Below are positions 1 to 55,043 of a stretch of 64,000 nt of DNA, piece after piece. The stretch spans positions 4,191 to 68,190 of the forward strand of contig JAJRTW010000155.1 in NCBI GenBank assembly GCA_024278075.1. The letters run 5' to 3'. Source of the stretch: Bacteroidota bacterium (GTDB lineage Bacteria > Bacteroidota > Ignavibacteria > Kapaibacteriales > UBA2268). The first letter of the stretch is position 1; every line of letters starts with the position of its first letter. Made by a program: the position numbers and the translations under genes. Below the pieces are notes generated by a model that was not told the DNA's origin, made no database searches, and worked only from the letters and a program-made list of their open reading frames with translations.

Positions 1-150
1 ATCCGGCTTTAGTTCAATTACTTTCAAGACAGCTTCTCTGCCATTCTTTGCGGTGCCAATAACTTGAATTTGATCTGTTGTTATTATTTTGGAAATAGTG
101 CTTCTCATAAAATAAGAATCGTCTACTACCAGGACTCTAATCGGTTTCAT
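1..150 (-). CDS. cheB: CheB-like response-regulator receiver domain, N-terminal 50 codons (partial; gene continues beyond window start)
   Basis: The reverse complement of 1-150 translates without stops to MKPIRVLVVDDSYFMRSTISKIITTDQIQVIGTAKNGREAVLKVIELKPD, a typical CheB/REC N-terminus. It lies downstream of cheA on the same strand. Confidence 0.55.
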   Translation of the reverse strand, partial: MKPIRVLVVDDSYFMRSTISKIITTDQIQVIGTAKNGREAVLKVIELKPD

Positions 151-249
151 ATATTTAATTTAAGGTGAATATTTTGAAAAAAACTCAAACTTTATTTCCA
201 AAGTAAAGGTCTTTTAAATCAACACTTTGGACATTTTTTATAATGACTT

Positions 250-770
250 GAAAAATAAATCGCTTACGAAATGTCATTCTGAGCCCATCGGCAGTCTATC
301 CTGAGCCCTTCGGCCTGGCTCTGGATAAACTATGTCGGAGGACTCTGGATAAACTCCGCGATGAATCTATAACTTTATACATTTTAAGTGTTTATAGATT
401 CTTCACTACGCTCCGACATAAATGTCCGAAGTACTGTTAAATTACAATCGAAATATAAAACGTCCCGTCGGTTGTTACAACTGGCAAAATACAACAGCTT
501 CTAAACACGCCGGTTGTAACATCCGGCTATATGAGAATATAAAAGGCTTTTGAATAAATTGCGAATATTTACCAGTAGTGTCCGGTTAAAAATGAGAACC
601 ACTCATAATATGTACCTGAATATTATGACTTGTCATTGCAGAACTCGTTTCAGAATCCAGTATTCACGGGCTATGTGGTCATATTGAGATGGATACCGGA
701 TTCCCGATAGCGGGATTACTTCCCAATACGGGAATTCGCTGGGCTCAACAAGTCCGGTATAACATGATTT
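250..770. repeat. Composite intergenic repeat element copy E1 (MITE/REP-like) between cheA and cheB
   Basis: It contains a 'gtcggttgttacaactggc' hairpin module (466-485) and a ~185-bp module (574-757). That module recurs inverted at 10611-10822 and its terminus 'agtagtgtccggttaa' recurs at 16227-16244. Internal direct repeats are 'ctctggataaact' x2 and 'ctgagccc[at]tcggc' x2. Confidence 0.6.
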
Positions 771-909
771 AATATTATATTTCACTAATTCAAAAATTGC
801 ATCCATAATGGCACACTATAGGCCAAAATGGAGTTTAATGCTGCAAATATCACAAATTGACTGATTGTTAACCGAACACTTGTAGCTGCAATTATTTACA
901 TAAAATTAT

Positions 910-2880
910 TTACATAAAATTATTATTAAACACTGTCTTTAATAAATCAGCAACGTCAATAATCATAATAACCCTTCCGTCGCCAAGTATGGTCGAGCCG
1001 GCAATTCCGGAAACATTGCCAAGATACTCGCCCAAAGATTTAATAACAATCTCCTGCTGCCCCAATAGTTCATCAACCACAACCCCGACCCTCTGGATTC
1101 CAAGCCCGACAATTACGGCGTTGCGGTCAACCAAATCCTCTTTCACAACCTCAACGCCAACGGCCTTATCGAGCCGGAGCAGGGGGTACACCTCGCTTCG
1201 TATCCTGATTACTTCCTGCTGGTTCACAGTATAAACGCTTTCCGGGTCAATCGAGACCACTTCTTCGACCGAACTCAAAGGTATTGCATAAGATTCGTTG
1301 TGCACCTTTACCAACAGTCCTTGAATAATTGCGAGAGTCAAAGGCAGCTTGATAATAAATGTACTGCCGGCCTGAAGCTCCGATTCAATTTCTATCATAC
1401 CTTTCAGATGCTGAATATTTGTTCTGACCACATCCATACCAACACCTCGGCCGGAGACGTTTGACACAGTCTTAGCGGTGCTGAAACCGGGAGTGAATAT
1501 CAACTGAAAAGCTTCCCGCGAGGTCATCTGTGATGCTTGTTCTTCATTAATCAACCCCTTTTCCAAAGCCTTTGCTTTAAGATTTTCGGGGTCCATTCCG
1601 GCGCCATCGTCGGAAATCCTAAGAACAATATTATTTCCTTCCTGATCGGCATCTAATGTAAGAATTCCCTCTTCCGGCTTGCCAAGTTCTTTTCTTTTTT
1701 CAGGGGATTCGATGCCATGGTCGCAAGAGTTTCTTATCATGTGGACTAACGGATCATTCAGCTCTTCGATAATTCCGCGGTCGATCTCGGTTTCTTCACC
1801 TTTTACAATTAGTTTGATTTTTTTCTTAAATTCCTTCGACAGGTCCCGGACTATTCTTGGAGCCTTTTGATACAGTTTGCCTATCGGCACCATCCTCATT
1901 CTCATAATCGCAGCCTGAATTTCGGATGTAACGAAATCAATCTGTGCGGTATTTTCAATCAGGTCCCGTATTTCATCCTTATGCTCGAATTCATGCTCGA
2001 GGATCTCTGTTATCTGAGCCAGCCTGTTTCTGCCTAGCACTAATTCACCGGATAGGTCCATTAGTGCTTCAACCCTATTGACATCTACCCTTATCGTCTC
2101 TGAAGCCATCTTCATATTGCCGGGCTTAATTATTTTAGCTTTGGGTTTGGTTTTGGTTTTTGGTTCAGCAGCTGGCGGCTCTGATTTATTGGCTTCTGCT
2201 TGCGAAGCCGGTTCTGCGGCGGCCTGTGTTTTGGCGGTGGCTTCCTTTTTTGCTTTCGGTTTCGGCTTGTTCTCTTCAACGAATTTCTGATTCAATTCAT
2301 CGAATGCGGCTTGAATCAAATCCAGTTCATCATTCGAGAAATCATCGGCGCCCTGGACCATTTCGGGATTATCTGTTACAGCTGACAAAGCATCTGTTAA
2401 CGGAGGCGTGTCGTCTTCCGGCCGGATGGCCTGTTCCTCTGGTGCATCGGTGGCTTCCTCATCATCGCCATCTAAGGCTTCGCCTGCATTCAGCTTTTTC
2501 AATTGCTTAATCGTTCCGGCAAAATCAACCGGCTGCTTATCTCCGGATTGTAATTTATCCATTAGTGTAACTATCCAGTCGTGCACTTCAAGCAAGACAT
2601 CAATAATAGGCAATGACACTTTAAGCTCTATACGGCGGAGCTTGTTCAGCAGGTCTTCGGCATGGTGAGTAATAGTAGTAATGGCATCGAACCCCATGAA
2701 TCCGGAAGTACCTTTGATAGTATGGAAGCTTCGAAAAATCCTGTTCAACAGGTCAAGGTCTTCCGGCTGATTTTCAAGGATCATCAAATCCTGCGAAACA
2801 TTATCCAAAAGTTCTTGAGTTTCAACAAGGAATCCCTCAAATATTTCCTGCATCTCCGGGTCGCTAAACTGAGAGTTCAT
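910..2880 (-). CDS. cheA: Chemotaxis histidine kinase CheA
   Basis: 656-aa ORF with an Hpt motif (HTIKGTSGFMGFD), a HATPase_c region (NSCDHGIE...GRGVGMDVV) and a C-terminal CheW-like domain. Confidence 0.9.
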   Translation of the reverse strand: MNSQFSDPEMQEIFEGFLVETQELLDNVSQDLMILENQPEDLDLLNRIFRSFHTIKGTSGFMGFDAITTITHHAEDLLNKLRRIELKVSLPIIDVLLEVHDWIVTLMDKLQSGDKQPVDFAGTIKQLKKLNAGEALDGDDEEATDAPEEQAIRPEDDTPPLTDALSAVTDNPEMVQGADDFSNDELDLIQAAFDELNQKFVEENKPKPKAKKEATAKTQAAAEPASQAEANKSEPPAAEPKTKTKPKAKIIKPGNMKMASETIRVDVNRVEALMDLSGELVLGRNRLAQITEILEHEFEHKDEIRDLIENTAQIDFVTSEIQAAIMRMRMVPIGKLYQKAPRIVRDLSKEFKKKIKLIVKGEETEIDRGIIEELNDPLVHMIRNSCDHGIESPEKRKELGKPEEGILTLDADQEGNNIVLRISDDGAGMDPENLKAKALEKGLINEEQASQMTSREAFQLIFTPGFSTAKTVSNVSGRGVGMDVVRTNIQHLKGMIEIESELQAGSTFIIKLPLTLAIIQGLLVKVHNESYAIPLSSVEEVVSIDPESVYTVNQQEVIRIRSEVYPLLRLDKAVGVEVVKEDLVDRNAVIVGLGIQRVGVVVDELLGQQEIVIKSLGEYLGNVSGIAGSTILGDGRVIMIIDVADLLKTVFNNNFM

Positions 2881-8418: not shown

Positions 8419-8572
8419 CAGAACTATTCAATAGCCACGTGCTTTAGCTCGTGGAAGCCCAAATCCCCGAATTAAAACTCGGAGCTATATATTCCTTCAT
8501 ACTTCAATAGCCATGTGCTTTAGCTCGTGGAAGCCCAAATCCCCGAATTAAAACTCGGGGCTATAAATCTTT
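8419..8572. repeat. Tandem direct repeat, 2 x ~77 bp
   Basis: Units 'ttcaatagcca[ct]gtgctttagctcgtggaagcccaaatccccgaattaaaactcgg[ag]gctata' at ~8428 and ~8505 are ~97% identical. Each has an inverted repeat ccacg...cgtgg. Confidence 0.8.
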
Positions 8573-10297: not shown

Positions 10298-10339
10298 TTC
10301 TAATATGAATACAGTAGTGCATCATCTCATAATAAATTA

Positions 10340-10825
10340 ATATTTAACGTTCCGTCAGTTGTTACAACTGACGAATGACGAGAGTTTCTATATTGCCAGT
10401 TGTAACAACTGGCGAAAGCAAAGGTGTAACAAAGCTGGTGGCTTTGATACAAGGGTTAACATTGCAATTGTTTCTGAGATGCCGTATTAGTGTCCGGTTA
10501 AAATGCAGCCAATTTGTGATAATCGAAGTAATAAGCTCCTTTTTGGCCTATATTGTGCTATAGTGGATACAATTTTGAAATTAGCAAAAATAATATCTAA
10601 ACGTGTCATTCCGGACTTATTGAGCCCAGCGAATTCCCGTATTGGGAAGTAATCCCGCTATCGGGAACCCGGAATCCATCTCAATATGGCCACATAGCCC
10701 GCACATACTGGATTCTTCACTACGCCACAAGTGGCTTGCCATAGATGGCTTTGTTCAGAATGACAAGTCATAATATTCAGGTACATATTCTGAGTGTTTC
10801 TCTTTTTTTACCGGACACTACTAAT
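10340..10825. repeat. Composite intergenic repeat element copy E2 (contains inverted copy of the E1 185-bp module)
   Basis: Hairpins 'cagttgttacaactgacg' (10356) and 'ccagttgtaacaactggcg' (10398). A B-start fragment 'tattagtgtccggttaaaatg' is at 10486. The reverse complement of the E1 module spans 10611-10822. Flanked by the 12-bp direct repeat 'ctaatatgaata' at 10301 and 10821. Confidence 0.65.
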
Positions 10826-11695
10826 ATGAATAATATAAATCCGAATACACCCAAATCGAACAAAGATATTATCCTTGAAATTATTGCAACGGGAATTTCA
10901 AGATACTCGGCCAATCTTGAGCTGTGCAAAAAAGCGTTCTCCGAAGAATCCGTGCATGGCCTAAGGGTATCCATCCGGAGGCTAATAACCATTGTTCGTG
11001 TGATAAATAAAATAATCCCGAATGAAAATGTACCATCATTGCTTTCATCTTTTAAATCGCACCTAAAATTGTTCAATCCCCTGCGCGATACGCAAGTGAT
11101 GATGCTAAAGATAGAGGAAATGGCCCAAAGGCATCCGGCACTTGAAGTTTTCGGCTCCGAACTAAAAGAACGCGAAAAAAATTATATATTAGCTCTGAAA
11201 AAGGGAATTCAGCATTTGTCATTTTCCCGGATTCAGCCTGCTCTCGACGAAATGAATGAATCCTTAGGTGCGTCGGTTGTTTCCGGCAGCATTATTTTCG
11301 CCCATATAATTAATTCAATGAATTCGTCTTTCACAAAAGTTATTGAGCTTAATAATATTGCCACAAGCGATAACATGGAATCTTTGCATAAAGTCAGGCT
11401 TGCGTTCAAGAAGTTCCGCTACCGAGCCGAAGCTTTCACAAATATTATCAACTATCCGGAATGCAGGCGAAAGCAGCTTGGGAAATTCCAGGATACACTC
11501 GGGGCAATTCAGGATAATTCCGTACTGATGAAGAATATCGAAGAATTTTCCATTAACAATAATTTGGAAAAGGACTTCTTGCCGGCAATAATTGAATTAC
11601 GTGAGGAAGGGGTACTTTTGGTTAATAATTATTTCAGTAATTCGGATTTTATATTTAATTTTTGGTCATTGCCGCAACCGCCGGCGCTATCTTGA
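10826..11695 (+). CDS. CHAD domain-containing protein
   Basis: Motif 'VHGLRVSIRRLITIVRV' is typical of CHAD. The start was moved to the internal ATG (MNNINP...) because the longer ORF start lies inside the repeat element. Confidence 0.55.
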   Translation: MNNINPNTPKSNKDIILEIIATGISRYSANLELCKKAFSEESVHGLRVSIRRLITIVRVINKIIPNENVPSLLSSFKSHLKLFNPLRDTQVMMLKIEEMAQRHPALEVFGSELKEREKNYILALKKGIQHLSFSRIQPALDEMNESLGASVVSGSIIFAHIINSMNSSFTKVIELNNIATSDNMESLHKVRLAFKKFRYRAEAFTNIINYPECRRKQLGKFQDTLGAIQDNSVLMKNIEEFSINNNLEKDFLPAIIELREEGVLLVNNYFSNSDFIFNFWSLPQPPALS

Positions 11696-15807: not shown

Positions 15808-15984
15808 GTGGATATATTCACAGATTAATAAAAAAAACCTTTTTGATGATTATTCAACAATCAAATTAACAAAAAAGTTACCAAGCCGGAAATAAATCGT
15901 GCGTGCCCGAATGCGGCAGATATATGTTATGGAATAAAATAATTATAGAATAATAATATAGAATAAAATAATGGGATCTTCATT

Positions 15985-16244
15985 GCCAAGTCAGGTGTTA
16001 CACCTGACGTGCTTGAGCTGTCTTGTTTTGTCAGTTGTAACAACTGACGGTACATGGCAGGATGCAAACCTTTCAATCATTTGTAGGGGACGGTTCATAA
16101 CCGTCCCGAAATAATTGTCGTGTTGTTAGGGCAGGTTTGGAACCTGCCCCTACGATTCTTATTCTGTTATTGGCAACTTGCGATAACATAACGTAGTATT
16201 CGAGTATAAATTATGAGCCGCTCTTATTTTAACCGGACACTACT
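15985..16244. repeat. Repeat element copy E3: cluster of four perfect hairpins ending in the shared terminus 'ttttaaccggacactact'
   Basis: Hairpins tcaggtgttacacctga (15991), gtcagttgtaacaactgac (16030), gggacggttcataaccgtccc (16086) and agggcaggtttggaacctgcccct (16128). Flanked by the 18-bp perfect direct repeat 'tgttatggaataaaataa' (15915 and 16245). Confidence 0.65.
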
Positions 16245-16261
16245 GTTATGGAATAAAATAA

Positions 16262-16300
16262 AAATATAAATAAAAAATAAAAAATAAAAAATAAAAAATA
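16262..16300. repeat. Simple sequence repeat (aataaaa)n
   Basis: 'aaataaaaaataaaaaataaaaaataaaaaataaaat'. Confidence 0.8.
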
Positions 16301-16399
16301 AAATAATGGAATATTTTTGAGGAGTGCCGAATTTAACGACGGATGGAGGATGCAATCGTAAAAACAATAGTCATCGAATTATTCAGATGCTTCCTACTG

Positions 16400-45950: not shown

Positions 45951-48900
45951 TTGAGCAACTGGAACCGCAAGTGGCCTCGCAAAGCCGATACAAAACCATC
46001 ATTAATGCGTGTCCTGAAAAGAATTCATAAACATTATATAGGATATGGTGCAGAGGCATTCAAATATAGTTTAGACGAATATATTAGGCTCTACTTGGAT
46101 TATAGGTTCCAGGGAAAGGGAATCAATAACTATAAAGGTGATATCGAATCAAGAGAATATATTGTAATGTATTACGGACTTGATACGCTCCCTGAGCCGT
46201 ATGCTTCATTGGTAAACGATTTTATTGGTCAAAGCAAGAATATATCATCTCCAACAATAAATTCAGGCAAGGACATGACATTAATGGAACAAGCACAGCA
46301 CAACTTCGAGAAAATAACGAAGCTGTATTCATTGGCCAAAGAGAAAGGGAAAATCAAACCTGATATGATCTCCGCTCTTGACAATGGATTTGAGTCTATT
46401 GGTGACTTGATTGGTGTGGTATATGAACCGGTAAATATTATAAACCCAGATAAATTAAAGAAAATCAACTATGCACCCGGCAATACGACAACAATTGAAA
46501 CGCCAAACGAATCCATAAAAGCAAAGTATGTGTTAGTGCCACTCATGGACTTAATAGAATCTAATGATCCGTATTCGTTTAAAAGGAACCCGGATTATCC
46601 TGAATTTTGCCAAACCAGGAATTATGCACAGACGAAAGCCGAACAAAATAAGGTAATTAGCTTTTCCAAAGATTTCAAACCGGAACATCTGATTAATAAT
46701 TCGCCGGACGCCACAACAGGCCCACCAATTATCACAAAAGAAGGGATCGTGCTTGGCGGAAATGGACGGGCAATGATTTTAAAGCGAATTCATCATAAAA
46801 AAGGTTTTGATGAGTATTCTCAATTATTAGAACGGAATTTAGAATCATTCGGATTTAGTCCAGGCTGTGCGGCCCACATGATTCTTGCCCGCATGATTGA
46901 TATTGACTATAAAAAATGTGCCGCATATAGTAATAAACTTAATCAATCGACTATGCAGGAACGGGACGCAGTGACACTCGGTATCGGCTATGCGAAGCAA
47001 ATTAGTGAACAGGATTATACAACACTCGCAAAAATATTTGAGAATTCCGAAGAATCAACTTTTTCGGCCACACTGAATAATGCCGTTTCGCAACGACAAA
47101 TCATTTCCGTACTGGAGAAGTCAGGGCTGATTACTCCACAAAACCGTACTCAATGGATTAGCGAAGGCACCGGCGAACTTTCCAAGCAAGGCCGTGCGAT
47201 ATTAGAATCCGTTCTTATCGGCTATATTATGCCGGATAAGGCATTGATGGAAGCGGCACAGAACTATACAAATAAATTAGTCAAGTCACTGCCATTATTG
47301 ATACAAATTCACAATATGTCCGGCACGTGGAATATAGTGCCGGATATAAAAACGGCTATCCGGGAAGAAGTTAAACGACGGCGTGCAGGTGCGACAAAGG
47401 CGGATTATTTACGGCAGGATGATATGTTCGCAAGTGGCAAATCGGATATTGTGCCGGAGAATGTTCAATTAGTTTGGAAAGCCCTGGACGGTGGGGTATT
47501 GCAATTCCGTGATTTCCTCAAGAAATACATTCGCACGGCAAACAATGAAATGTCCGGCGGCTCGATGTTCGGCGAATCCAAAGTAAAATCAATCGACGTT
47601 CTTCGCAAACACATTAGCAATACAGGACTTGGTGATAATATGTCATTAATGCAACAAGCACAGCAGCAGTTCGAGAAAATAACGAAGCTGTATTCATTGG
47701 CCAAAGAGAAGGGGAAAATCAAGTCTGATATGATCTCCGCTCTTGACAATGGATTTAAGTCTATCGGCGAATTGATTGGTGTGGTGTATGAGCCGGTGGT
47801 AAAGACAAGGACACGGGAGTGGGCTTTGATAATGAGTATTCTGGACACACATGAATTTTGCATGCATAAATCAAATTCTTCACAAAGAGAACGTAAAGAA
47901 TGCAGAGAATTAAACGAGTCCCGACAAAAGGAATTGTTAATACTAACATTGACAAAACCAATTAAGCCCATAATGGATATAACAGATTTTAGTAAAATTG
48001 AGGAAACAGTATATAATATATTATATGCCCGCAGACCTAATACTATAATATCACAGTTAAAGAAATATAGGATAAATCAAAAGCTAACTGATGAAATGAT
48101 TCTTGACGTTACGGCTATATATATGTCCGGTGAAACAAGCCGAAATCAGCCGATATTCCATCGCAAAGTAGATGCTTTAATGAAGCAAAAGAAGAAGAAT
48201 ATTAGACTATGGAATAAGATGAGAGCTTATCTCCCTACTCTTGGTACGACCGATAATACATTATGGGACATAGCATTTAAGGAAAAAGGCGATATAGTAT
48301 CGAGACATGGAGAGGAGATAATCTTTTCACCAACTTATGAAGAACTTATTTATTGGATATATGAATATAGTGATATAAAGCCAAAAGCTGAGACAGTTCC
48401 CAAACCACAGGAAAAGAAAACGGAGACTAAAACAAATAACAACAAATTCCCGTTCCCTGGCGATGCAATAAAAAAGACTGAATTTGATAAATGGTTCGAG
48501 ACTGCCGAAAGGAACTACAAAGCTAAAGATTTAAGTTATTCTGCATTCCAGGAATTGGATGAAATGTTCGCTCCCATAGGTGAAGACGACCAGAAGGCCA
48601 TTGTTCAATATCTGTTCGCCAATGCACCGGACAAACTTAAGAAATTAGTAATGTATGGTAAAAAAGCAGCAACCACTGGTTGGTGGGAAGCTGATAATAT
48701 GAGTAAAAATGCACCTCCGACAAGTGATTTCGACGCAGGAAAAGATATTCCTGCTGAATTCCAAAAACATAGACGAATCAAAATTGTTGACTATGAATTG
48801 AAACCGGACAATGAAAATCTTTGGGGAATTATAGGAACAAGCATCAGTACAGATGTTCACCGCCCCCCAATGAATGGGGCTGAGTTTAATGATAAAGGTG

Positions 48901-50381
48901 TCGTAACAACTGACAGCTACCGTATCGCATTCATCCCGGGCAAAGTATCGAAAGTCAAAGAAGCAAAAATATTCAAAGAGACTAATTCTTATGGCCGAGA
49001 AAAGATTCATCCCGTCTATCACCCTGACGGCAGCTTTATTGATGAAACATTTGCACCCTGGGAAAGTGTTATTCCTAATATATCAACTACGATTGCAACG
49101 GCTAATACTCAGGAATTATTAAACCAATTATATACTTATAAATATTGGTTCCGTTGGGTATATCGAATTGGAAATGGCTATACAGCACCTGTGGTTATTA
49201 ATTTTGATGGCAATAAAAGAATGTCATTCAACCCGGATTATATGCTTGATGCTGTTACATTTATGGCAAAGTTAGGAGTTGAAACAATCTATTTCCAGGT
49301 TGACATGAGCAAACCTGAAGATGCACCTACTAAGCCATTAATTCTAATAGGTAATAAGAATGCTACCGCAAGTGATTGCAAAGTCCCGTTCCATTTAATT
49401 ATGCCTATACGATTAGATAATGAAGATTATCCCGATACACTGATTTATACCCGTATAGGTGCTGAACCTGGGAATGTAGGGCTGTCTGATGAACTATCAA
49501 TGAATGCCGATCCTTTGCAAATAGCATTATTCGACGATCAGAGAACGCCCGGCAACATCAGTAGCCTCGGCGACGACATTCAACCAAACGACATTCAGCC
49601 GATTGAAGAATTACAACCATTGCAACCGATTACTCCGATTGCGACTACGGGCGGGGATCAAGCAGCCTCAATAAACAACAGCGAAGTCCCCGACCCGGAT
49701 TATATTCCGTTCGACGATCCGAGGCATAATGTACTGCCTGAATTAGCAACGGCACAGGATATATCCAGTCAGGTATTTAGTAGCAAACCGTTGAAACTTG
49801 GCCGCACCCGAATATTGTTCGACAATATGTTGGATGATGCTAATATGTTAATCTACGGGCCAAGAGGCGAAGGCAAAACTACGTTTGCATTGCAATACAT
49901 AAACGATCTATCGAAAAACGGCGATGTATTATATGTAATGACCGAAGAGGGTATAAGCACACGATTGAAAGAACGGCTCCGGTGGAATAAAATAAATGCA
50001 AAAAATATCAGCTTCCTCGAAACAAGAGACTTCCACATCCTGAGAGAATATCTCGATTCTGGCAATTATAAATTTGTAGTGATTGATTCGCATAACAAAA
50101 TCGAAGGGGCTACTCAAAAACAAATCATCGAATTGCTTGATGAATATTCTAATATATCTTTTGTTATCATTGCACGGATGGACAAAGAAGCAAAAATATA
50201 CAGAGGTGATTCAGATTGGGAATATGACGTTGATACTGTTGTGAAACTCGAAAAAGGGAATGCAACAACTATTAAACACAGAGACGGCCCGTCAGGTAAG
50301 ATAATGCGGGTACTCCCAAGCAAAGCATGGGGACAATTAAATAATTCGCAATTAATAAATTCAAATGTTAAATCAGCATAA
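45951..50381 (+). CDS. Giant 1476-aa multidomain protein: ParB-like N-region (tentative), intragenic duplicated segment, C-terminal RecA/DnaB-like P-loop ATPase
   Basis: Walker A 'LIYGPRGEGKTTFA' and Walker B 'KFVVIDSHNK'. 'ITKEGIVLGGNGRAMILKRI' resembles the ParB GxxRxxA motif. A 155-nt near-identical duplication lies at 46270-46445 and 47634-47810. Confidence 0.55.
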   Translation: MSNWNRKWPRKADTKPSLMRVLKRIHKHYIGYGAEAFKYSLDEYIRLYLDYRFQGKGINNYKGDIESREYIVMYYGLDTLPEPYASLVNDFIGQSKNISSPTINSGKDMTLMEQAQHNFEKITKLYSLAKEKGKIKPDMISALDNGFESIGDLIGVVYEPVNIINPDKLKKINYAPGNTTTIETPNESIKAKYVLVPLMDLIESNDPYSFKRNPDYPEFCQTRNYAQTKAEQNKVISFSKDFKPEHLINNSPDATTGPPIITKEGIVLGGNGRAMILKRIHHKKGFDEYSQLLERNLESFGFSPGCAAHMILARMIDIDYKKCAAYSNKLNQSTMQERDAVTLGIGYAKQISEQDYTTLAKIFENSEESTFSATLNNAVSQRQIISVLEKSGLITPQNRTQWISEGTGELSKQGRAILESVLIGYIMPDKALMEAAQNYTNKLVKSLPLLIQIHNMSGTWNIVPDIKTAIREEVKRRRAGATKADYLRQDDMFASGKSDIVPENVQLVWKALDGGVLQFRDFLKKYIRTANNEMSGGSMFGESKVKSIDVLRKHISNTGLGDNMSLMQQAQQQFEKITKLYSLAKEKGKIKSDMISALDNGFKSIGELIGVVYEPVVKTRTREWALIMSILDTHEFCMHKSNSSQRERKECRELNESRQKELLILTLTKPIKPIMDITDFSKIEETVYNILYARRPNTIISQLKKYRINQKLTDEMILDVTAIYMSGETSRNQPIFHRKVDALMKQKKKNIRLWNKMRAYLPTLGTTDNTLWDIAFKEKGDIVSRHGEEIIFSPTYEELIYWIYEYSDIKPKAETVPKPQEKKTETKTNNNKFPFPGDAIKKTEFDKWFETAERNYKAKDLSYSAFQELDEMFAPIGEDDQKAIVQYLFANAPDKLKKLVMYGKKAATTGWWEADNMSKNAPPTSDFDAGKDIPAEFQKHRRIKIVDYELKPDNENLWGIIGTSISTDVHRPPMNGAEFNDKGVVTTDSYRIAFIPGKVSKVKEAKIFKETNSYGREKIHPVYHPDGSFIDETFAPWESVIPNISTTIATANTQELLNQLYTYKYWFRWVYRIGNGYTAPVVINFDGNKRMSFNPDYMLDAVTFMAKLGVETIYFQVDMSKPEDAPTKPLILIGNKNATASDCKVPFHLIMPIRLDNEDYPDTLIYTRIGAEPGNVGLSDELSMNADPLQIALFDDQRTPGNISSLGDDIQPNDIQPIEELQPLQPITPIATTGGDQAASINNSEVPDPDYIPFDDPRHNVLPELATAQDISSQVFSSKPLKLGRTRILFDNMLDDANMLIYGPRGEGKTTFALQYINDLSKNGDVLYVMTEEGISTRLKERLRWNKINAKNISFLETRDFHILREYLDSGNYKFVVIDSHNKIEGATQKQIIELLDEYSNISFVIIARMDKEAKIYRGDSDWEYDVDTVVKLEKGNATTIKHRDGPSGKIMRVLPSKAWGQLNNSQLINSNVKSA

Positions 50382-53434: not shown

Positions 53435-53500
53435 AACTTTTTTTTGGAATGCAGGCAGGATTTGAACCTGCGTAACGCCGCCCGTTCTGCATTCGAGGGG
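53435..53500 (-). repeat. tRNA 3'-end-like element A (T-arm 'gcaggttcaaatcctgc' + acceptor-like inverted repeat gaatgcag/ctgcattc)
   Basis: Minus strand: gaatgcag-aacgggcggcgttac-GCAGG-TTCAAAT-CCTGC-ctgcattcc. It is too short (~48 nt) to be a tRNA. About 90% identical to the element at 54978-55043. Confidence 0.6.
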
Positions 53501-54977: not shown

Positions 54978-55043
54978 TGAACTCGATTTGGGATGCAGCC
55001 AAGATTTGAACCTGCGTAACGCCGACCGCTCTGCATTCTGTAG
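54978..55043 (-). repeat. tRNA 3'-end-like element B (copy of element A)
   Basis: 'gggatgcagccaagatttgaacctgcgtaacgccgaccgctctgcattc' is about 90% identical to element A, with the same 'gaact' leader. Confidence 0.6.

Follow-up and report, generated by a model that had tools for sequence, protein, structure and literature searches.

The 759-bp gap between cheA and cheB in this chemotaxis operon is very probably a nest of small, old, non-autonomous repeats, accumulated in a junction that is only 14–215 bp long in relatives. In the mechanism that we propose, an IS4-family MITE with termini CAGTAGTGTCCGGT(T/A)AAAA would have enlarged the junction, its parent insertion sequence (IS) moving by cut-and-paste with a DUF4372+DDE transposase and leaving a 9-bp target duplication. 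Positions 462–527 would be inverted REP-like palindromes whose hairpin is maintained by compensatory substitutions, and positions 272–420 would contribute further hairpin-rich material of GTCATTC...GAATC-type motifs. These modules would be independent of one another and share permissive intergenic spots rather than form one composite transposon, and they were probably inserted in this lineage. Read-through, if it takes place, would yield a highly structured intercistronic RNA. By analogy with REP/BIME and Correia elements, such an RNA might block exonucleases or be cut by an RNase and so shift the cheA:cheB ratio to a modest extent; it could equally be neutral.

The window, by which we mean the whole 64-kb stretch of DNA that was analysed, begins within cheB. 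Its minus strand encodes a HEAT-repeat protein, CheR, two receiver proteins, a CheZ-like protein and cheA, followed by the gap and cheB. The features of the junction are as follows.

1–150, minus strand: the 50 codons at the 5′ end of cheB, the rest of which lies beyond the window edge.
151–909, minus strand: cheA–cheB intercistronic spacer, 759 bp.
910–2880, minus strand: cheA, 656 aa, with Hpt, H-kinase_dim, HATPase_c and CheW domains.

The cheA stop at 910 and the cheB start at 150, both on the minus strand, lie where a preliminary description of this DNA had placed them. The cheB fragment is 62% identical over 50 aa to the N terminus of the CheB that follows cheA in one relative (L001), a protein with Response_reg and CheB_methylest domains. 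A 14-bp tandem duplication (AATTATTTACATAA twice, at about 890–917, read from the sequence) overlaps the cheA stop codon. Apart from the protein's own 100%-identical entry, the closest database matches to CheA are at most 67% identical, and the named ones are MAGs of Ignavibacteria, Kapabacteria or Bacteroidota; we class the window genome as Ignavibacteria/Kapabacteria-like.

Eight orthologous cheA loci, whose CheA proteins are 60–67% identical to that of the window, were compared. In five of the eight, cheB directly follows cheA after gaps of 85, 85, 81, 215 and 14 bp; in the other three, different genes occupy that position and cheB is not there. In none of the eight loci is there sequence similar to the window spacer, and the IS terminus and the palindrome are missing from them too. 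The preliminary description had reasoned that a similar, conserved spacer of ~760 bp in relatives would mark an ancestral regulatory region rather than an insertion, and the relatives, with gaps of 14–215 bp, have no such spacer. Because the orthologous gaps are short and dissimilar, we regard the spacer expansion as lineage-specific; with CheA at most 67% identical, the relatives are too distant for this to be a true empty-site comparison.

It is hardly credible, then, that the 759 bp represent a regulatory region which the operon inherited from an ancestor. Such a region is contradicted by the relatives, and half of the spacer consists of repeats found elsewhere in the window; we rejected it on the relatives' gaps. 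The junction does carry conserved non-coding sequence in part of the group: three relatives with gaps of ~83 bp (L001, L120 and L121) share a CCCCC(A/G)GATAAA...TGGGGG hairpin followed by a T-rich tract, and no CCCCC...GGGGG hairpin of this kind occurs in the window spacer. Since three relatives have both the hairpin and the T-rich tract, cheB may have been partly uncoupled from cheA already in the ancestor of the group, and not through the insertion.

Comparing the spacer with the whole 64-kb window by blastn placed its repeated parts at two other loci.

Spacer 574–880: matches 10822–10489, inverted, 78.5% identity including gaps (E = 9e-80).
Spacer 452–527: matches 10339–10413, direct, 76% identity (E = 3.5e-9).
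Spacer 462–521: matches 16053–15996, inverted, 78% identity (E = 1.5e-7).
Spacer 570–625: matches 16248–16194, inverted, 80% identity (E = 1.5e-7).

The preliminary description had seen here a single 520-bp composite repeat at 250–770 that filled the spacer almost entirely and had family members at the 10.3-kb and 16-kb loci. Sharing with these loci does lie far above chance, the terminal-repeat 16-mer occurring 8 times in the window against 0.52 expected and the palindrome 15-mer 15 times against 1.22, but only the MITE and the hairpin doublet recur. The proposed bounds have to be redrawn: the large repeat spans 573–888 and so ends 118 bp past 770, and 250–450 is otherwise unique sequence that recurs in the window only as 11–15-nt fragments within MITE copy B. 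The share common to another locus amounts to ~390 of the 759 bp (51%). Nor is there one composite element, as the modules differ in order and orientation among the three loci. Relative to the spacer, the 10-kb locus has the large repeat inverted and the neighbouring hairpin doublet direct. The 16-kb locus shares only ~58 nt of the doublet and ~55 nt of one element end, in changed order; its single large-repeat end lies on the other side of the doublet, with unrelated hairpins in between. Both hairpins quoted in the preliminary description were recovered, at 467–485 (GTCGGTTGTTACAACTGGC) and 509–527.

The large repeat accounts for the following features.

573–888, plus strand: MITE copy A, 316 bp, transposase-less; left end exact CAGTAGTGTCCGGTTAAAA, right end degenerate.
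10485–10823, minus strand: MITE copy B, 339 bp, with 2/19 mismatches in each of its two recognisable terminal repeats.
16190–16245, minus strand: isolated fragment of a MITE or IS left end, with CAGTAGTGTCCGGTTAAAA exact and similarity over a further ~35 nt of subterminal sequence.
701–748: 48-nt block that does not differ between copies A and B and lies in a branched stem-loop (from alignment and fold).
564–572: possible decayed 9-bp target-site duplication, left copy, AATATTTAC.
890–899: possible decayed target-site duplication, right copy, AATTATTTAC, with a 1-nt indel relative to the left copy; situated inside the 14-bp tandem duplication at the cheA stop.

Judged by its sequence, this repeat qualifies as a MITE derived from an IS4-family insertion sequence: its termini match the ends of autonomous IS copies, it is small and it has no transposase coding capacity. 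In its 64 kb the window holds the element twice in full and once as an end fragment. Copies A and B stand in opposite orientation; they align over 314 positions at 83.1% identity and differ by a 28-nt indel, and their terminal inverted repeats conform to the consensus given above (the terminus is also written CAGTAGTGTCCGG). Neither copy has a significant ORF, the only one present being a 57-aa chance ORF; their interiors show no similarity to the IS interior, and tblastn with IS4 transposases gave nothing significant in the 64-kb window. The subterminal sequence of the solo fragment matches IS ends of other genomes over 37–53 nt. The putative target-site duplication of copy A is imperfect (9/10 matches with an indel), and copy B has no 9-bp duplication at its ends (0/9 matches). 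Both copies appear to be old, and copy A, with its degenerate terminal repeat and imperfect duplication, looks decayed and is probably no longer mobile. The IS-type termini, together with the short and unrelated gaps of the relatives, support the earlier suggestion that the spacer was enlarged by inserted repeat DNA.

Identity between the copies reaches 96.7% across 701–760 and is ~77–88% in the remainder, with ~77% directly on either side, so the identical 48-nt core hints at constraint or gene conversion over simple decay. Both copies are oriented alike relative to the flanking transcription, and one end of copy B lies 2 nt upstream of the ATG (10826) of a CHAD-domain gene.

Across genomes, the terminus leads to a widespread parent. 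An 18-mer from it (AGTAGTGTCCGGTWAAAA) was scanned against 185,579 species genomes, one per bacterial or archaeal species, and was found at no fewer than 110 loci in many phyla. Most of the matches lie no more than ~140 nt from the end of a contig, the expected place if assemblies break in a repeat. Among the matches listed are loci in Burkholderiales, Nitrosomonadales, Chlorobiaceae, Bacteroidota, Nitrospirota, Desulfobacterota, Planctomycetota and Verrucomicrobiota, and one in an Ignavibacteria MAG (L093). In 93 aligned ends, position −1 is C in 99% and conservation is absent beyond it, indicating that the element begins at that C. A homologous transposase of ~410 aa lies just inside the end at 32 loci among the matches listed. 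Against the NCBIfam model NF033592 ('IS4 family transposase'; cut-off 115), two of these proteins reach 262.7 and 212.3 bits; the domains are PF14294 DUF4372 and PF01609 DDE_Tnp_1, and a YQxRWxIELFFKxIK motif is visible. The matches listed also include 18 full repeat-bounded IS copies (1278–1546 bp) and eight transposase-less miniatures with these ends (94–387 bp), the latter hosted by Nitrospirota, Bacteroidota, Planctomycetota, Fibrobacterota and Thermodesulfovibrionia. Perfect 9-bp target duplications flank 17 of these 26 repeat-bounded elements, 6 of the 8 miniatures included. Since miniatures with these termini occur in other phyla, the IS group gives rise to them repeatedly.

The parent IS ends in CAGTAGTGT, of the pattern CA......T, and its size, end pattern and duplication length fit the IS4Sa subgroup, for which Table 1 of De Palmenaer et al. 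2008 gives 1150–1750 bp, CA------T ends and direct repeats of 8–10 bp (PMC2266710). The closest named element found is ISGme2 on the Geobacter metallireducens plasmid NC_007515, with ends CACTACTGTCCGGT... and flanked on both sides by AGTGGAATA. In viral contigs the terminal 16-mer gave seven single matches, about chance for so short a pattern, and a literature search for the terminal sequence found no paper.

The parentage bears on another reading, in which a site-specific recombinase inverts the terminal-repeat segment, making it a DNA switch (inverton). Inverted repeats bounding a ~300-bp intergenic segment that stands in both orientations relative to the adjacent doublet are what such a switch would look like, and it would explain the opposite orientations of the copies. 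However, the repeats correspond to the ends of a DDE insertion sequence whose homologues have 9-bp target duplications, and the two orientations are found at different loci, in copies 83% identical, rather than as two states of one locus. The right repeat of copy A is degenerate, and no promoter motif lies inside the segment. We rejected this reading on the IS termini and consider it extremely unlikely.

The second recurring module is a pair of short palindromes, present three times in the window.

462–527, plus strand: REP-like palindromic hairpin doublet; hairpins at 467–485 and 509–527 with loops TTA and TAA, two inverted units.
10352–10413, plus strand: REP-like doublet copy B; hairpins at 10352–10373 and 10395–10413; −30.2 kcal/mol, z = −5.9.
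15990–16050, minus strand: REP-like doublet copy C; hairpins at 15990–16008 and 16030–16050.

At 3/3 window loci, two units with the core CAGTTGT-T/A-ACAACTG stand in opposite orientation at a spacing of 22–24 nt, and each doublet can form two hairpins or a single long one, with energies of −20.6 to −30.2 kcal/mol and a lowest z of −5.9. Beyond the window, a 20-mer of the palindrome (CGTCAGTTGTTACAACTGAC) occurs in 11 JGI metagenome contigs of 34–42% G+C. Identity at these loci extends beyond the query, up to three units are present per contig and the flanks differ. Across 18 units (6 from the window and 12 from the 11 metagenome contigs), the 9-bp stem is paired in 93.2% of cells, a percentage that is inflated because units were pre-selected for at least five of six inner pairs, and slid controls of the stem are only 20–51% paired. 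Double-sided changes affect 4 of the 9 stem pairs, two of these covarying pairs lying outside the filter, and amount to 7 cells against 1.5 in shuffles, a count matched by 0/500 shuffles.

We call the unit REP-like because it turns up in 11 metagenome contigs and shows compensatory changes. The doublet behaves as a REP/REPIN-type element, for which mobilisation by a RAYT is putative, and the hairpin unit appears to be dispersed in related low-GC environmental genomes. The 5′ head reads GTNN in 14 of the 18 units, and GTAG in only one. A tblastn search with an E. coli RAYT query, whose negative outcome carries little weight, found no RAYT-like match in the window or the metagenome loci.

The third module is the part of the spacer nearest cheB.

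272–420: sequence unique in the window that folds strongly, contains direct as well as inverted repeats and includes fragments of the GTCATTCTGA / GATTCTTCACTACGC motifs.

As operon-sense RNA it folds at −53.8 kcal/mol (z = −5.2), and 0/200 shuffles are as stable. It holds halves of a GTCATTCTGAGC / GCGTAGTGAAGAATC motif that is also present inside MITE copy B. Kindred GTCATTCC...GGAATC forms are found next to the palindrome in metagenome contigs and, in three other phyla, within unrelated miniatures that share these termini. We take these motifs to resemble Neisseria dRS3 (ATTCCC-N8-GGGAAT) in form only, a comparison for which a search gave one literal hit, to a Neisseria paper.

How the modules came to lie together calls for an extra assumption. 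All three window doublets lie within ~200 bp of an IS-type end (~50–170 nt from it), so pure independence is insufficient, and one has to assume that the modules favour the same targets or that permissive sites are scarce; possibly the MITE prefers to insert near palindromes, or few sites tolerate insertion. Elsewhere, no association of palindrome and IS end was found in 11 palindrome loci and the 110 IS-end loci listed, all from other organisms. The same proximity, together with a weak similarity in the 46–71-nt linker between doublet and element at copies A and B, could be read as the trace of a single ~520-bp composite mobile element in which hairpin module and terminal-repeat element transpose as a unit. 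We find this very unlikely and rejected it on order and orientation, the variation in which argues against any larger composite unit. Between A and B the terminal-repeat element is inverted relative to the doublet, and at copy C the doublet sits on the inner side of the sole end with unrelated hairpins between them. The modules also occur singly, IS ends without the palindrome at the 110 loci listed and the palindrome without IS ends at 11, and 250–450 is not repeated. Separate small repeats that accumulated at the same spot therefore remain our preferred reading.

What the nest does to the operon transcript can be addressed through its signals and its folding. The whole spacer, taken as operon-sense RNA, has a folding energy of −201.8 kcal/mol, whereas its shuffles average −164.5 ± 5.6 (z = −6.7). 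No intrinsic terminator (a G+C-rich stem-loop followed by a T-run) is present in positions 1–1100 on either strand, sigma-70-like promoter matches are at chance (6 against 4.4 ± 2.6), and the Bacteroidota −7 motif TAnnTTTG was not found on either strand. With neither terminator nor promoter signals found, the spacer is most likely read through in the operon transcript. The idea in the preliminary description that the element could terminate or attenuate transcription, or supply a promoter, has no sequence signal in its favour. Rfam gave no match for the whole window at gathering thresholds and, for the two main repeat regions at E ≤ 1, only two far-sub-threshold, miRNA-shaped matches on the long hairpin. 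A tRNA or tmRNA origin was dismissed, as ARAGORN found none. Elsewhere, REPs act as IS insertion targets and change the stability of upstream transcripts (PMC3184786), and REP/SMAG and Correia-type structures can stabilise upstream segments or be cleaved (PMC3184786, PMC10969869).

An alternative view is that the structured MITE core, the hairpin doublet or both now work at the RNA level, through exaptation, as a cis-regulatory or sRNA module (a processing site, stabiliser or attenuator) that actively decouples cheB from cheA. The identical 48-nt block in a branched stem-loop between flanks of ~77% identity would suit it, as would the common orientation of A and B relative to flanking transcription, the position of copy B, which contains the 5′ region of the CHAD gene and stops 2 nt before its start codon, the very strong folding of the spacer, the hairpin covariation and the precedents of Correia and SMAG elements (PMC10969869, PMC3184786). 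Yet there are only two full copies, so neither their conservation nor their orientation carries statistical weight, and a 34-nt piece of the MITE core has 0 matches in JGI metagenomes. The covariation of the palindrome is equally expected from recognition by a transposase at the DNA level, and the absence of an Rfam match, a terminator-like site and TAnnTTTG, with promoter-like matches at chance, also speaks against a regulatory module. We consider exaptation unlikely. A more elaborate idea is that the doublet and the GTCATTC...GAATC motifs belong to an undescribed Ignavibacteria-type REPIN-like system with its own mobilising enzyme, which attracts IS4-type MITEs, and that the 48-nt core is an exapted RNA setting the cheA:cheB ratio; this we regard as quite improbable.

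A nest of decayed repeats has several practical consequences. Any ORF annotated within the repeats is spurious, and the CHAD gene has a MITE directly next to its start at 10826. The 19-nt terminus CAGTAGTGTCCGGT(T/A)AAAA marks a multi-phylum IS4-family group that spawns miniatures and breaks metagenome assemblies, which makes it useful for repeat masking and MAG curation. Should the spacer alter cheB expression, it would be one more case of repeat-driven tuning of operon stoichiometry.

Among known systems, the large repeat is closest to ISGme2/IS4Sa-type elements. The terminus reads CAGTAGTGTCCGGTTAAAA here and CACTACTGTCCGGTTAATA in ISGme2, the ends follow CA......T and homologues have 9-bp duplications. 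Unlike ISGme2, the window elements are 316 and 339 bp long, lack a transposase gene and have unrelated interiors, and the 64 kb contain no autonomous copy. [quoted passage not shown] 2008, describe as a few hundred bp long, A+T-rich and strongly folding, with terminal repeats of ~21 bp and 9-bp direct repeats, one copy sitting between operon genes (PMC10969869, PMC3184786). The window MITE is similar to that description in size class, A+T-richness, folding, terminal repeats and position within an operon. However, the Chunjie copies are described there as recent, with repeats and duplications intact, whereas the window copies are decayed, and the two are likened by description only.

The doublet has its counterpart in the REP, BIME and REPIN elements of Proteobacteria. 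These too are short extragenic inverted doublets between co-oriented genes, have stems with compensatory changes and cluster with other repeats and IS insertions. By comparison, the unit here is A+T-rich (CAGTTGTTACAACTG core) and without a clear GTAG head, in an Ignavibacteria-like host; and, in contrast to RAYT-associated REPs, no RAYT gene was found in the 64-kb window with the E. coli query. As a nest, the spacer resembles the Neisseria NIME/dRS3 and Streptococcus pneumoniae BOX/RUP/SPRITE arrays, in which several unrelated small families likewise sit at the same intergenic sites and, in the latter, bunch together and insert into one another (PMC10969869), although it has no sequence homology to those families. 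The feature is thus real but ordinary, such pile-ups of repeats being common in bacteria: both the MITE and the doublet are known kinds of repeat, and an oddly long gap in a conserved chemotaxis operon is explained without new biology.

In three relatives in which cheA is followed by cheB, the gap between the genes is ~83 bp and holds a hairpin, CCCCC...GGGGG, which is conserved and has a T-rich tract after it (L001 8011–8095, L120 6008–6092 and L121 6044–6124). This arrangement is a terminator- or attenuator-like signal within the operon. In a fourth relative, L122, the gap is 215 bp and is occupied by a tandem array of CCATTGACCATTAA instead. In the window, a 14-bp tandem duplication (AATTATTTACATAA x2, 890–917) overlaps the cheA stop codon and directly adjoins the right end of MITE copy A, the copy in the cheA–cheB spacer.

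Copies A and B of the MITE share an identical 48-nt block, TTCCCGATAGCGGGATTACTTCCCAATACGGGAATTCGCTGGGCTCAA (window 701–748 and 10620–10667), between flanks that are ~77% identical, and the block folds into a branched stem-loop. A search for it in the JGI metagenomes, with a 34-nt MITE core as query, returned no match. Copy B terminates 2 nt upstream of the ATG of a CHAD-domain gene (10826); the promoter and 5′ region of the gene must lie inside the element or upstream of it. An in-frame ATG at 10745, within copy B, would give the CHAD protein 27 extra, element-encoded residues.

Among the matches listed from an 18-mer scan of species genomes for IS4-family termini (L009–L118; at least 110 loci), the 19-nt IS terminus is conserved exactly over many phyla, A/T is preferred symmetrically at both edges of the 9-bp target, and many MAG contigs break off ~120–140 nt inside the IS. 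Despite this exactly conserved terminus, the transposases at these loci share only ~35–37% identity with the Chlorobium copy. At window 8356 there is a 16-mer, TAATGTCCGGTTATAG, that resembles a degenerate IS end, with 3 mismatches.

The window holds several further repeats. The 16-kb repeat cluster sits between A+T-rich direct repeats of 47–66 nt (TGTTATGGAATAAAATAA...AATAATGG; 15925–15975 and 16244–16309), much longer than the 9-bp IS4 target duplication. Hairpins built on GCAGG(A/T)TT(T/G)(G/A)AACCTGC occur just 3′ of minus-strand genes (53443–53494 and 54987–55038) and within this cluster (16127–16150); they resemble a tRNA T-arm, although ARAGORN found no tRNA in the window. Two 66-nt tandem repeats, 95% identical and each with a hairpin, lie between divergent genes (8427–8568). 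A 158-nt direct repeat (46275–46432 and 47640–47797; 91% identical) has both copies within one 1476-aa ORF (45951–50381), giving the predicted protein an internal repeat.

Short hairpins of another type recur within the window repeats and at loci outside it:

Window 273–411, 632–658, 697–760 and 10605–10768; also L035, L066, L114, L126 and L130: GTCATTC(C/T)...(G/A)GAATC hairpins

Outside the window, they are contained in unrelated miniatures that share the MITE's IS4 termini, from Nitrospirota, Thermodesulfovibrionia and Sphingobacteriia, and in metagenome contigs they adjoin the REP-like palindrome. In form, these hairpins are similar to the dRS3 repeats of Neisseria.
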